A stretch of 64,000 nucleotides of DNA. Origin: a virus. Position 1 is the first letter of the stretch; each line of letters starts with the position of its first letter. The translations under genes and the position numbers were made by a program. The stretch lies in IMG/VR virus record IMGVR_UViG_3300020045_004291, positions 1-64,000 of that record; one strand, 5' to 3'. The notes under the pieces were generated by a model. It was not told where the DNA came from and searched no databases. It worked only from the letters and a program-made list of their open reading frames with translations. Positions 15,448 to 63,150 of this stretch are shown piece by piece.

Positions 15448-15476
15448 ACACTAACCGAAACGATATTCGGTGTCAA
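15448..15476 (-). promoter_or_regulatory. Early promoter with palindromic operator
   Basis: TTGACA-N17-TAGTGT; the spacer carries an ACCGAA-N6-TTCGGT palindrome; retained in copy B. Confidence 0.65.
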
Positions 15477-22700: not shown

Positions 22701-23109
22701 CATTCCACAGGGGATAAAGATTTACGGCAACACCGCTTTCCGTGGTGAATGCCCAAAAGAAAGCCTTGAGCAGGTGACTTTTTTTAACAAGCTTCGCAAA
22801 GCGCACCCAACAACCTGGGGGATATTGGCCCTACACCCGCGCAACGAGCAACAGTTAAAAGGCGGGCAACACGGGGCATTTGTTAAGCAAAAGGCAGAAG
22901 GGTTAACGCCTGGGGCGTCCGATATAATAATCCCGGCCCGCGTTTCTTTTGTGTGCGAGTTAAAGCGAAAAGATCACACAAAAAGCAAATGGGAAGACGG
23001 GCAAATAGAATATCTTATAGCTGCGTCCACGGCTGGGGCTTTTGCTTGCGTAGCATTTGGCCATGAAGGCGCTTGGTCAGCTTTTGAGGATTGGTTAAAT
23101 GGACAATAA
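22687..23109 (+). CDS. VRR-NUC domain nuclease
   Basis: E..EQ...EG..PGASD...ELKR motif. Confidence 0.75.
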   Translation: MRLNDIPQGIKIYGNTAFRGECPKESLEQVTFFNKLRKAHPTTWGILALHPRNEQQLKGGQHGAFVKQKAEGLTPGASDIIIPARVSFVCELKRKDHTKSKWEDGQIEYLIAASTAGAFACVAFGHEGAWSAFEDWLNGQ

Positions 23110-23413
23110 GGCCATAGCTGAAAAGATATTTTGCGCACCATCGGAAAAGGCGCAAAAACGACTGTTTGCGGACGTGCCGGAAGCGCAAAGGCCGTATGTG
23201 TTGTGCGAGCTTAGGGAGATATCAGGAAGCCCGCACGCCATACGGAAGGGGATGACACTACTGGCAACAGACGACACACCAGACGGGCTTAAAGACGCCA
23301 AAGCGTGGATAAAACAAAAAGGCCTGACGTCCGCAGACATCAGGCTTTTTAAAAGTGGCGACCTCCTTATGATTGAGGCTATCAGGGACGACGCTCTAAA
23401 CCCCCAGCGTTGA
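23099..23413 (+). CDS. Hypothetical protein
   Basis: 104 aa, coupled; conserved in copy B. Confidence 0.6.
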   Translation: MDNKAIAEKIFCAPSEKAQKRLFADVPEAQRPYVLCELREISGSPHAIRKGMTLLATDDTPDGLKDAKAWIKQKGLTSADIRLFKSGDLLMIEAIRDDALNPQR

Positions 23414-25514: not shown

Positions 25515-25516
25515 AA

Positions 25517-25702
25517 ATGACTCAGAACGAGTTTAAGCTTTTCACCCAGTCGAACAATCGCCCTCATAAGTCTGGGGAGGCTTTCAGCGTAGGCCAGAGC
25601 CGCCCATACGCGCTTATTGGTGCGGTCGTCAATCTCATGACCATTATCGGATTCCTGGGCGTCGTATTGTTTGCGCTTTCAGCCTTGGCGGTGTCGGTAT
25701 GA
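25517..25702 (+). CDS. Small membrane protein
   Basis: AAGGAG RBS; hydrophobic C-terminus. Confidence 0.5.
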   Translation: MTQNEFKLFTQSNNRPHKSGEAFSVGQSRPYALIGAVVNLMTIIGFLGVVLFALSALAVSV

Positions 25703-26084
25703 CACAGCAACAAATTGACCGCTTATGGCGTGAAAATCAGCGCTTGCAAGAGATTATCTCGGCGCAGGAAATCACCATTGCCAACTATGAAAAGTGGTTG
25801 CAGGAGATGAAGGAGCAAAACCAATGCACCCATTTGTCATAATTGGCGCAATCATTGCCGCCGTCTTTATTGTCGGCATATTCATCGCGTACGTAGTTTT
25901 AGAGGATCAAGATTATTATGACCCAAGATGAATACTTTGAACGCGAGGCCACTAAGGCCCCCAAACCGTCCACCAAGGTCTTGGTAGACCGTGAGGATTT
26001 GGCCTTGCTGATCGACGCTGCATCCGCAACCTGTGCCATAGAGTTCATTCAGGACATGCGCGCCAAGCTTAACGGGGGTGCGGA

Positions 26085-28242: not shown

Positions 28243-28361
28243 TTGATAATATAATACACATAAGCAGAGCTGTTATTGCAATGGGCTTCGCAGCGTTAAT
28301 TGTTGGCTTTGCCATTTTCATTTCGATTATTGCGTTTAGCTTTTTGCGTGAGTTTTTCCGC

Positions 28362-28390
28362 TTGTAGCGACATTAAATTCGATGTAGTCT
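28362..28390 (+). promoter_or_regulatory. Putative sigma70-type promoter
   Basis: TTGTAG-N17-TAGTCT upstream of the small ORF and the structured region. Confidence 0.4.
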
Positions 28391-28402
28391 TGTGTATTGT
28401 TT

Positions 28403-28543
28403 ATGTGTTTCGTTTATCTAGACCAACTTAATAGGTGGTTTATCAGATGGACGATTTGGATGAGGGCGGCGCTTGTCGTTCCAATGATCTTCGCCGCTCT
28501 CATTATCTTATTTGCGTTTCGGCTGGACTTTCACCCATGGTAG
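28403..28543 (+). CDS. Possible 46 aa membrane peptide
   Basis: MCFVYLDQLNRWFIRWTIWMRAALVVPMIFAALIILFAFRLDFHPW; no clear RBS. Confidence 0.3.
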   Translation: MCFVYLDQLNRWFIRWTIWMRAALVVPMIFAALIILFAFRLDFHPW

Positions 28544-28569
28544 CTTACATGGCACGTCATAATGATCGT

Positions 28570-28912
28570 ATCGCCCCGCCCCAGCCAATGGGTTCCTAAA
28601 GGCGGGAATTAGACAAAGCCGTCTGCCGGACGTAAAGCGGCTAAGTTTCGCGCTTCGGCGCACATAAGTTTAGCTAGCGACCACCCCAGTCCGAAAATGG
28701 GGCCGCCAACGTAATCAGGGATTATGGGGCGCTGGCTAATAAGTTTGATCTGCGGTGCAAAACTTCCCCTGCGCCTGTCTTTCGCCAGGATTAACACAGA
28801 GGATGAACCTAAGCGTAATGGCGAGGTTTCGCAGATCAAAACCAATCCCGCAAGGGTAGAGGGGCGACCTTCCGAAAGACCTCAGCCGTTTCCCTCCGGC
28901 TGGGGTTTTTTG
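28570..28912 (+). ncRNA. Candidate large structured non-coding RNA
   Basis: Long-range helices at 28670-79/28730-39 and 28744-54/28830-40, C(UUCG)G and GCAA tetraloop hairpins, ending in an intrinsic terminator. Confidence 0.55.
28880..28912 (+). terminator. Intrinsic terminator
   Basis: CCTCAGCCG-N8-CGGCTGGGG-TTTTTT. Confidence 0.75.
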
Positions 28913-28975
28913 TGTCTTAAACCATATATTTAGATTTCTGATCTATTGTGGTTCTCATAGAAGAGGGAAAATTCT

Positions 28976-29569
28976 ATGAGATATCCAAACGCCGTTGGTG
29001 CAATCAACATCATTAATGTCAGCCTGTTAATCGCCCTGGGGATCGCCGTCACGGCACCAACTGTGCAGCCTGACCAGTTTGTTACCTATGCCCCGCCGCC
29101 CGCCTTGGAGGTCGTATGGCCCACGCGTGAATTGATCGTGTATCCAGAGGTTGCCACCGTTTCAGGCGTTGACCTAATTAAACGCTTTGAAGGGCTGCGC
29201 TTGAAAGCGTATAAGTGCACGGCAAAACGCTGGACTATTGGTTATGGCCGCGCATATGGCGTCAAATCCGGTCAGGTGATCACACAGGCCGAAGCTGACC
29301 GCATGTTGTCGGTTGACTACGCCAAAACAAAAAGCGCCGTCCTGAGTGCTGTAAAGGCCGATATCAGCGATCAACAAATAGAGGTATTGGTGTCGTTCGC
29401 GTATAACGTGGGGATTACGCGGTTCAAAGAATCCACTATGTTAAAAATGATCAATGCCGGTGACATGCGCGGCGCTCGCGATCAGTTCAGGTTCTGGATT
29501 CACGTTGACGGCCAGCCTATCGACGGCCTGATTAACCGCCGTGCAGAAGAGGCGGCGTTGTTTATTTAG
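28976..29569 (+). CDS. GH24 lysozyme with N-terminal transmembrane/signal segment and Pro-rich linker
   Basis: LIKRFEGLRLKAYKC....WTIGYG, LVSFAYNVG and GLINRR motifs. Confidence 0.85.
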   Translation: MRYPNAVGAINIINVSLLIALGIAVTAPTVQPDQFVTYAPPPALEVVWPTRELIVYPEVATVSGVDLIKRFEGLRLKAYKCTAKRWTIGYGRAYGVKSGQVITQAEADRMLSVDYAKTKSAVLSAVKADISDQQIEVLVSFAYNVGITRFKESTMLKMINAGDMRGARDQFRFWIHVDGQPIDGLINRRAEEAALFI

Positions 29570-30838: not shown

Positions 30839-31085
30839 GAGTGATCACCTTGGCTTTTTCGCGGACGACTTTCACGCGGTCGATATATTTGGTGTCAATG
30901 ACGATTGAAGCTTGCGCATTTATCAGCGATGTCTTAGCGGACGCCAGTTCACCCCCAAGGCGGGCTATATCTGCCTTCTGAGCGGCAATAACCTTTTCCT
31001 TGGCGTCAAGCTTCATATTGACGATAATGACGGTGCCAGCCAGCGTAAAGGCCGCAAGGGCTATAGCGAATGTTTCCAGCTTCAT
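30735..31085 (-). CDS. Inner-membrane spanin (Rz-like)
   Basis: N-terminal TM helix plus coiled coil, directly after the endolysin. Confidence 0.7.
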   Translation of the reverse strand: MKLETFAIALAAFTLAGTVIIVNMKLDAKEKVIAAQKADIARLGGELASAKTSLINAQASIVIDTKYIDRVKVVREKAKVITHEIPVPSKCEDIGVTYNAWLAGLDELRGETPTQP

Positions 31086-31561
31086 GAGACACCTTTCAGG
31101 CAAAGGTTACGCTCTGCGTTACGTCTGTTTAACAGGCCTTGCACGGGCTTTCCACCGGCAAAGCGCCACGCTAAGAACGCATCGCACCCGCCCTTGATGT
31201 CGCCAGCGTCAAACCTACGATCGACAGTCGATTTGCAATAGGCTTGCGTGCCGATGTTATAGGCTAGAGAAGTGGCTGCGGCTAAAACTTCGGGCTTGGA
31301 TGCAATGGACGGCGTACACGCCATAACGGGTTTCATGTAGCGTTCACTGACGGCCTTTTTCAGCATGGCCTCGCACTCAGCGTCGGTATAATGGCGCATT
31401 TCGACTTGCGTTTCACCAAAGCACACAGTTTTTACATTGACGATATCAAAATATGGGTCGTTAATTTTCCCTTCCCACGGCATAATGACGCCAAGCGCAA
31501 GCGCCATTGCAGATCCGCCAATGAGTGCGGTTTGTGCCTTTGGTGGTATATTAAGCCGCAT
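31082..31561 (-). CDS. SAR-type GH24 endolysin
   Basis: Gly/Ala-rich N-terminal anchor; WEG....PYFDIV...TVCFGET; YNIG; GLLNRR motifs. Confidence 0.85.
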   Translation of the reverse strand: MRLNIPPKAQTALIGGSAMALALGVIMPWEGKINDPYFDIVNVKTVCFGETQVEMRHYTDAECEAMLKKAVSERYMKPVMACTPSIASKPEVLAAATSLAYNIGTQAYCKSTVDRRFDAGDIKGGCDAFLAWRFAGGKPVQGLLNRRNAERNLCLKGVS

Positions 31562-62294: not shown

Positions 62295-62703
62295 CATTCC
62301 ACATGGCATAAAGATTTACGGCAACACCGCATTCCGTGGTGAATGCCCAAAAGAAAGCCTTGAGCAAGTGACTTTTTTTAACAAGCTTCGCAAAGCGCAC
62401 CCAACAACCTGGGGGCTATTGGCCCTACACCCGCGCAACGAGCAACAGCTAAAAGGCGGCCAACATGGGGCATTTGTTAAGCAAAAGGCAGAAGGGTTAA
62501 CGCCTGGGGCTTCCGATATAATAATCCCGGCCCGCGTTTCATTTGTGTGCGAGTTAAAGCGAAAAGATCACACCTTAAGCAAGTGGCAAGACGGACAAAA
62601 AGAATATCTTTTTGCCGCATCCAACGCTGGGGCTTTTGCTTGCGTAGCATTTGGCCATGAAGGCGCGTGGTCAGCTTTTGAGGATTGGTTAAGTGGACAA
62701 TAA
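62281..62703 (+). CDS. VRR-NUC nuclease (copy B)
   Basis: Homolog of 22687-23109. Confidence 0.75.
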   Translation: MRLSDIPHGIKIYGNTAFRGECPKESLEQVTFFNKLRKAHPTTWGLLALHPRNEQQLKGGQHGAFVKQKAEGLTPGASDIIIPARVSFVCELKRKDHTLSKWQDGQKEYLFAASNAGAFACVAFGHEGAWSAFEDWLSGQ

Positions 62704-63007
62704 GGCAATAGCTGAAAAGATATTTTGCGCACCATCGGAAAGGGCGCAAAAAAGACTGTTTGCGGACGTGCCGGAATCGCAAAGGCCGTATGTGTTGTGC
62801 GAGCTTAGGGAGCTATCAGGAAGCCCGCACGCCATACGTAATGGAATGACGCTACTGGCAACAGACGACACATCAGACGGGCTTAAAGACGCCAAAGCGT
62901 GGATAAAACAAAAAGGCCTGACATCCGCAGACATCAGGCTTTTTAAAAGTGGTGGCCTCCTTGTGATTGAGGCTGTCAGGGACGACGCTCTAAACCCCCA
63001 GCGTTGA
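62693..63007 (+). CDS. Hypothetical protein (copy B)
   Basis: Homolog of 23099-23413. Confidence 0.6.
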   Translation: MDNKAIAEKIFCAPSERAQKRLFADVPESQRPYVLCELRELSGSPHAIRNGMTLLATDDTSDGLKDAKAWIKQKGLTSADIRLFKSGGLLVIEAVRDDALNPQR

Positions 63008-63150
63008 AAACATCGCAGCGCCCTTAATCGCGTGGTTCAAGCCCTTAGCGCGCACATTGCGATGAAAGATGAAACACTGACAGCCTGACAGATAATAAAC
63101 GTCATACGCCGCCAGATGGCCGATCCAGTGTTGCTTGACCTTTACGGGCT

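Follow-up and report, generated by a model that had tools for sequence, protein, structure and literature searches.

The window analysed here, a 64-kb stretch of DNA, is the first part of a 92,471-nt metagenomic record. Self-comparison showed that this record is a head-to-tail chain of related ~39-kb phage genomes and not one 92-kb genome. Three units were delimited (genomes A, B and C, Table 1), and their shared mosaic blocks are 87-98% identical. Judging from these sequences, the chained genomes are probably co-occurring strain variants that were joined by the assembler, and the CheckV call of "100% complete" masks a chain of several genomes. Because the record chains related genomes, the element described below is present twice, at 28516-28912 (copy A) and at G000:70513-70922 (copy B), with 89% identity overall between the copies. 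These two copies are the sole comparative material, and both are from a single metagenomic record, that of an uncultured aquatic phage; one aquatic DNA sequencing run gave only a 207-nt contig, covering 28881-29087. A strong promoter-like sequence, TTGACA-N17-TAGTGT, was seen in all three genome copies, at 15448-15476 (minus strand), G000:54497-54525 and G000:92083-92111. The genome B version has TATTGT, and the site contains a CCGAA/TTCGG palindrome.

On the plus strand of genome A, a group of small genes is followed by a gene-free stretch of ~400 nt and then by a lysozyme gene. The products of the upstream genes, a helical protein of 141 aa, a basic protein of 76 aa and a single-pass membrane peptide of 42 aa, fit no known family, and the genes are 89.6% identical between the copies. 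The 42-aa ORF is complete and ends at 28367. The lysozyme, an accessory enzyme of the GH24 type, has an N-terminal membrane segment and a Pro-rich linker; its gene is the last one on the plus strand and starts ~60 nt past the terminator that ends the gene-free stretch. A second lysozyme, an endolysin also of the GH24 type, is encoded on the minus strand at 31082-31561, and thus one ~39-kb phage carries two GH24 lysozymes. The best NCBIfam similarities of the plus-strand lysozyme were to the gene-transfer-agent endolysin BgtA and to SpmX, which hints at an alphaproteobacterial host. The initial annotation had placed the gene-free stretch in an otherwise tightly packed genome, a description that is correct only in part, as further ORF-free gaps occur. 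One such gap of ~570 nt, at 25515-26084 (and G000:65671-66159), lies upstream of a 173-aa ORF, and its copies are ~87% identical. A cluster of 4-5 stems of at least 10 bp, mainly on the minus strand, was also seen amid overlapping ORFs at 62400-63100 of genome B, and the genome A counterpart (~22900-23350) has several long stems too.

Table 1. Features of the record and of the element with its flanks; positions are those of the window and continue into the rest of the record.
Feature	Position	Strand	Remarks
Genome A	1-39263		From self-comparison
Genome B	39264 to ~78441		From self-comparison
Genome C	from ~78442		From self-comparison; incomplete at record end
Putative weak promoter, TTGTAG-N17-TAGTCT	28362-28390	+	Overlaps stop codon of the 42-aa upstream ORF
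120-nt insertion, copy A only	28396-28515	+	Right after the putative -10, before the core
5' domain	28516-28645	+	Hairpins 28535-52, 28554-69, 28575-28606, 28617-42
Predicted closing helix, UUUCGG/CCGAAA	28517-22/28872-77	+	Just before the terminator; MFE, two-copy consensus
CCCGCC/GGCGGG	28575-80/28601-06	+	Read directly
AGCCG/CGGCT	28617-21/28638-42	+	Read directly
GCGC-UUCG-GCGC hairpin	28650-61	+	Read directly
Variable segment V1	28651-28683	+	Copy A: UUCG hairpin and 5' strand of the 10-bp helix
Domain 2	28670-28739	+	10-bp helix 28670-79/28730-39 with one G-U, encloses CCCCA/UGGGG and GUAAUC/GAUUAU
Domain 3	28744-28844	+	Perfect 11-bp helix 28744-54/28830-40 enclosing a three-way junction
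Variable segment V2	28755-28765	+	Unpaired 11-nt linker (A), unrelated 12 nt (B)
GNRA hairpins	28847-28872	+	CCC-GCAA-GGG (28847-56), GAGGG-GCGA-CCUUC (28859-72); unchanged in both copies
Intrinsic terminator	28880-28912	+	Stem 28880-88/28897-28905, 8-nt loop, U6 28906-11
Perfect 10-bp start hairpin	28953-62/28972-81	+	GAGGG Shine-Dalgarno in loop, AUG 28976-78 in 3' strand
Accessory GH24 lysozyme	28976-29569	+	Pfam PF00959, E 3e-40; PHROG endolysin

Direct reading of the sequence recovered every helix, tetraloop and terminator part that had been listed for the stretch initially, each at its given position. The extent proposed then, 28570-28912, was right at the 3' end (~28912) but not at the 5' end, as the conserved element begins at 28516; the start was set there because homology between the copies resumes at this position. 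The first 82 nt of the 5' domain are the same in copies A and B. The predicted closing helix, by which the 5' end would pair with the sequence ahead of the terminator, is invariant between the copies and hence offers no variation to judge the pairing by. The tetranucleotide ACCA (28841-44) stands directly 3' of the 11-bp helix in both copies, and the second of the GNRA hairpins behind it is an addition to the initial list. The 9 bp of the terminator stem are made up of 6 G-C, 1 A-U and 2 G-U pairs. The word TAAGTTT was noticed at 28642, 28665 and 28740, three times within 100 nt, and in each case a helix follows immediately; it has 11 occurrences on the plus strand of the whole record, and copy B has one, plus one CAAGTTT. 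The AAG-UUU within this word presumably agrees with the cleavage preference of RNase E.

The open reading frames that overlap the stretch had been dismissed as spurious, and the comparison of the copies bore this out: no ORF is common to both, three 1-nt indels separate them, and the frames had no PHROG match and no relatives among 5.8 billion proteins. A tblastx search of ~1 Mb of related phage DNA gave no match to the stretch, and the idea of a decayed protein gene was dropped because of this empty result. That the element encodes one or more small proteins is suggested most by copy A, in which the 120-nt insertion supplies an AGGTGG and an ATG at 28448 that open a frame of 50 codons ending at 28599. 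However, the ATG and the ribosome-binding site both sit in the insertion that is missing from copy B, which cannot start this frame, and with no conserved ORF, with the indels and with no family or protein matches we regard a protein product as hardly credible. The stretch is non-coding, with plus-strand features. The terminator, the tetraloops, the G-U pairs and a fold better than that of the minus strand all favour the plus strand, in agreement with the orientation assigned initially. The sole change in the terminator, UC to CU in copy B, keeps G-U/G-C pairs on the plus strand but would give A-C mismatches on the minus strand, and wherever paired positions change, G-U/G-C pairing is kept on the plus strand only. 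These strand-specific features also bear on the possibility of an element that acts as DNA, such as an origin, a packaging site or a protein-binding array, which would likewise be conserved without coding capacity and contain inverted repeats. The helices hold G-T pairs, which are not base pairs in DNA, and the UUCG and GNRA loops, the preservation of pairing on one strand, the canonical intrinsic terminator and the absence of iterons and of an AT-rich unwinding region all argue against it, so that a DNA-level element appears very improbable.

The two copies were then compared with their flanks. In the core outside V1 and V2, 9 of the 350 aligned positions differ, plus 2 single-base gaps. In the adjacent lysozyme gene, 32 of the 594 positions are changed, 27 of them among its 198 third codon positions. 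The core is far more conserved than this neutral proxy (Fisher p = 1e-6 against the third positions), which is the strongest argument for function, and the difference persists when only the nearest third of the lysozyme gene (66 codons, 7/66 third positions changed) is used (p = 0.0065). On this comparison the element is under purifying selection without coding capacity, although part of the low divergence could be due to a tract of recent recombination or to constraint acting on the DNA.

The variable segments depart from this pattern, with only 22 of their 48 aligned positions identical. In copy B, V1 is an unrelated sequence of 44 nt with GCCA-GAGA-UGGC and CCU-GUAA-GGG hairpins. Such an exchange of a UUCG hairpin for GNRA hairpins would be in keeping with the way peripheral elements of structured RNAs evolve. 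The replacement of V1 also leaves the 10-bp helix of domain 2 with only 5 bp in copy B, and this helix is therefore not strictly required; a C-to-U change beside UGGGG in copy B gains one A-U pair. Two candidate roles of V1 and V2 were tried and rejected. As antisense seeds they had complements of 10-11 nt, which is the chance level, with duplex energies equal to those of shuffles, and the sites either did not differ between the two genomes or were unrelated. The possibility that they form a co-varying kissing pair failed the shuffle controls too.

The same comparison has to be weighed against another explanation, that there is no RNA function at all and the stretch is the untranslated 3' end or spacer of a plus-strand early operon, its low divergence being due to a recombination tract or to hitch-hiking. 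Its position directly after the last small ORF would agree with this, as would its absence from all related phages searched, the lack of covariation and the modest fold z-scores given below, and a lysozyme divergence that is somewhat lower near the RNA (7/66 third positions) than farther on (20/132). Yet the core diverges ~4x less than even the nearest third codon positions, and a single recent recombination tract fails to explain two fully replaced inner segments. The substitution of one stable hairpin by another and the wobble-preserving changes point to selection on RNA structure, and a functionless operon tail is, in our view, rather unlikely.

Covariation, by which the proposed structure was to be checked, gave no support: among 109 predicted pairs there were 0 compensatory and 2 consistent one-sided changes, in a comparison of only two near-identical copies that has almost no power. 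The substituted positions tended to be unpaired, with a pairing probability of 0.45 versus 0.61 (p = 0.08). Signs that the region is more structured than chance would predict are uneven. The plus strand of the 92 kb has just 48 perfect stems of 10 bp or longer (with no more than 1 G-U and a span of up to 130); as three of these begin inside 28670-28953, the long-stem density here ranks among the top 0.2% of all 400-nt windows. The comparison of folding energies with shuffled sequences upheld the initial view as long as the terminator was included (z -3.6 on the plus versus -1.4 on the minus strand), but without the terminator the values were only -1.66 versus -1.14. Taken singly, the terminator had z -3.65 and a pair probability of ~1, domain 2 (28664-28742) z -2.4 (-2.44) and domain 3 (28743-28842) z -3.0 (-2.96), and the 5' domain (28516-28645), at z +0.45, folded no better than shuffles. 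In sliding 200-nt windows the fold was unremarkable save at the terminator and at the insertion specific to copy A. There is a mild excess of hairpins with tetraloop caps: 3 were counted in copy A and 4 in copy B, versus 1.05 expected per 400 nt (P ~0.09 and ~0.03, respectively). An origin of domains 2 and 3 by tandem duplication was considered and dropped, the two being not significantly alike.

The failure of the first analysis to recognise the element as a known RNA was confirmed with models. The whole window had 0 matches at the gathering thresholds of Rfam 15, and at E <=10 the regions 28300-29000 and 28735-28850 gave noise, with 9-16 bits versus gathering scores of 39-90. ARAGORN found 0 tRNA or tmRNA genes in the window and in copy B, permuted forms included. 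An intron is contradicted by the lack of an Intron_gpI or Intron_gpII match and by the complete flanking ORFs, the lysozyme having its own RBS and its start at 28976. On the minus strand, a UGGGU-GAAA-GUCCA hairpin at 28524-28537 was the source of a 19-nt match to the group II domain-1 consensus (E 0.53). A Burkholderiaceae MAG contains one instance of a 20-mer of this hairpin (L091:4261-4280), with a tRNA gene ~300 nt away; no likeness extends beyond the 20-mer, about one such match is expected by chance, and this lead was discarded. The minus-strand group II word and the 11-bp helix followed by ACCA are the weak leads to a divergent member of a known family (a group I or II intron, a tmRNA-like RNA, an RNase P-processed immunity RNA or an ornate large RNA) that the models could have missed. 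Against them stand the empty Rfam and ARAGORN results, for which domain 3 was also searched alone, and the lack of any interrupted gene. Of 100 long stems in the genome, 6 have NCCA behind them; the ACCA is hence not distinctive, and its reading as a significant tRNA-like tail was dropped on this count. A missed member of a known family is accordingly very unlikely.

Attempts to find homologues were also not successful. No homologue was obtained by blastn against 50,697 phage records, and when IMG/VR was scanned for exact occurrences of six words (17-27 nt), all that came back was chance matches or unrelated coding sequence. Two 20-mers searched against metagenome contigs gave no homologue, and against genome contigs they gave the single match in the Burkholderiaceae MAG. 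The lysozyme had no close relative among 5.8 billion proteins, and the route via the 141-aa upstream protein led to nothing. The helicase gene of the phage led to 77 related phage loci with 48-64% protein identity, in which the RNA was not found by nhmmer, blastn, tblastx or a covariance model (R1) of 28664-28845. Neither BLAST nor R1 gave a match in 50 whole related phage records, 24 of them at least 90% complete. In 401 Pseudomonadota genomes the helicase had only cellular homologues of ~37% identity. The idea that known RNAs occupy the equivalent position in related phages was examined and dropped. As the exact-word scans of the large collections detect near-identical sequence only, the term orphan means here that the element was not found with these queries and not that it is proven unique.

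The roles proposed initially, of a ribozyme, scaffold, decoy or antitoxin mimic, gained nothing in their favour. Tandem direct repeats of the ToxI type (~36 nt) are absent, only TAAGTTT recurring (3x in copy A, 1x in copy B), no toxin-like neighbour gene was found, and there was no antisense target above chance. No conserved aptamer was detected, there being no match to an Rfam aptamer and no homologue in the other genomes searched. Counted by eye, there are ~6 GGA in 400 nt, a chance number and with few of them in loops, which differs from a sponge of the CsrB/RsmZ type.

The sigma70-like promoter which the initial annotation placed at 28362-28390 proved weaker than that name implies, since it matches 6 of 12 consensus positions and was missed by a promoter scan. 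Both hexamers are the same in A and B and the 17-nt spacer has 3 substitutions, and in copy B the conserved RNA begins ~11 nt after the -10 hexamer. The retention of the hexamers with a changed spacer and this distance to the RNA start favour the putative promoter. Its -10, TAGTCT, has the TAnnnT form, like the strong TTGACA-N17-TAGTGT promoter of the phage; a recurring phage promoter motif was tested as a candidate and dropped. In copy A the promoter is separated from the core by the insertion, which folds (z -4.88, with 0/200 shuffles as stable) into two long hairpins, the second of them (28459-28502) terminator-like.

The position of the element in front of the lysozyme gene also allows a reading as a cis-acting leader of the attenuator or riboswitch type, in which the core would sense a signal and decide whether the terminator forms. 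In this model the left arm of the terminator would pair with a 5'-terminal CGGCUGG that is identical to the right arm, giving three mutually exclusive helices. Indeed, when the right arm was blocked, the left arm paired with 28520-26 (7 bp) in both copies; moreover, the predicted closing helix brings the 5' end to the bases that immediately precede the terminator, a single homology block spans both the RNA and the lysozyme gene, and the promoter scan gave no sigma70-like site for the interval from the terminator to the lysozyme start. However, the terminator, with its pair probability near unity, is favoured by 13-17 kcal/mol. Its left arm is no more complementary to the core than to a shuffled one (p = 0.19), and a better pairing partner exists at another site; the view that the 5' CGGCUGG was designed as an antiterminator was dropped for this reason. 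The core has no aptamer family match, and with ~350 nt it would be unusually large for sensing.

A further objection to a leader comes from the start of the lysozyme gene itself. The start hairpin has a predicted energy of -14.4 kcal/mol, and a C-to-U change in copy B leaves a G-U pair. Because the AUG lies in an RNA helix, messages read in from upstream should be translationally silent, and since it would remain locked in the 10-bp hairpin on a read-through mRNA, read-through is not a favoured route of lysozyme expression. An anti-sequestering partner for the start hairpin inside the conserved RNA was sought, and the idea was dropped. The arrangement is like that of the T4 gene e leader, where the lysozyme AUG is buried in a helix behind early transcription (PMC3014915, citing McPheeters et al. 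1986); as summarised in that source, the start hairpin of gene e silences early read-through transcripts and late transcripts start inside the hairpin (PMC3014915). A -10-like TATTGT at 28944-49 has the form of the -10 of the strong phage promoter in genome B. By analogy, it could be a candidate for the role of the T4 late promoter and could start the lysozyme mRNA inside the hairpin. The parallel differs in reach, as it covers the hairpin at 28953-81 only and not the 400-nt RNA, and the late promoter is only a candidate. Considering both sides, we hold the leader to be the chief rival reading, yet an unlikely one.

The reading we prefer is that 28516-28912 is a stand-alone, terminator-ended, structured RNA gene on the plus strand, which so far forms a new family of a single phage; we put its probability at roughly 0.45, somewhat below even odds. 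The element itself is real, constrained, non-coding and of the plus strand, and its multi-domain structure is credible but unproven. The stand-alone RNA is favoured by the constraint, the pattern of change and the long-stem density given above, and by its boundaries, as the conserved block starts ~11 nt past the -10 in copy B and ends at a terminator of pair probability ~1. The points against it are the terminator-like hairpin between promoter and core in copy A and the weakness of the promoter, together with the 0/109 compensatory changes, the z of -1.66 without the terminator and the shortening of a helix from 10 to 5 bp in copy B. Under this reading, transcription would start from the weak promoter, possibly with read-in from the upstream small-ORF operon, and would yield a transcript of ~400 nt, or ~520 nt in copy A if the 120-nt insertion is transcribed. 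A helix between the 5' end and the bases immediately before the terminator would close the RNA body, which would consist of the 5' domain, a swappable hairpin module, the two three-way-junction domains with their 10- and 11-bp helices, and the two GNRA hairpins. Released at the strong intrinsic terminator, it may act as a stable trans-acting RNA on a partner of the host or of the phage, and the terminator and the start-codon hairpin together would keep early transcription from expressing the accessory lysozyme. A bolder version is that the element is the founding member of a class of mid-sized (~400 nt) phage RNAs with a conserved core, strain-swapped hairpins and a tRNA-framed domain that is cut by host tRNA-processing enzymes, acting on host machinery or defence; this we consider distinctly doubtful.

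Several known systems come near to this stand-alone RNA. With the ornate GOLLD and ROOL RNAs of phages and prophages, which have Rfam models and a cryo-EM preprint (10.1101/2024.12.08.627333), it shares a phage location, a length of several hundred nt, several domains, tetraloop hairpins, the absence of coding and the absence of a known function. It differs in that it matches neither model, is shorter (~400 nt) and has no adjoining tRNA genes, and in that GOLLD and ROOL have covariation support, while the present element is known from a single record and is without it. Phages also encode immunity RNAs processed by RNase P, namely the C4 RNA of P1 and P7 (Rfam RF01695) and the CI RNA of P4, and T4 has the tRNA-framed species 1 and 2. 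The 11-bp helix with ACCA, a shape acceptable to RNase P and a lead to processing of that type, and the strain-specific variable segments are reminiscent of these RNAs, but there is no C4 match, the variable segments have no target above chance, and the ACCA is not distinctive. Riboswitch, T-box and attenuator leaders have in common with the element a structured 5' region whose closing helix borders on a terminator that precedes a gene; they differ in that here no aptamer or T-box match, no antiterminator above chance and a separately locked start codon were found. In phage lambda, the pR'-tR' region gives the 6S leader RNA, a promoter and a short terminated transcript standing before the late operon of lambdoid phages. 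A putative promoter with a short, terminated transcript in front of a gene of the lysis type is seen here as well, but this gene stands alone behind it, closing the plus-strand unit, the real lysis cassette lies on the opposite strand, and no Q-like protein turned up upstream.

With one metagenomic record and no cultured host, the reach of the finding is limited for now. The two strain variants, with the same core and swapped peripheral modules, nevertheless offer a natural contrast to guide mutagenesis. The accessory membrane-anchored lysozyme, placed behind what would be two locks at the RNA level, the terminator and the start-codon hairpin, makes a testable parallel to T4 gene e. If real, the element would be an uncatalogued addition to the small set of phage-encoded RNAs without known function.
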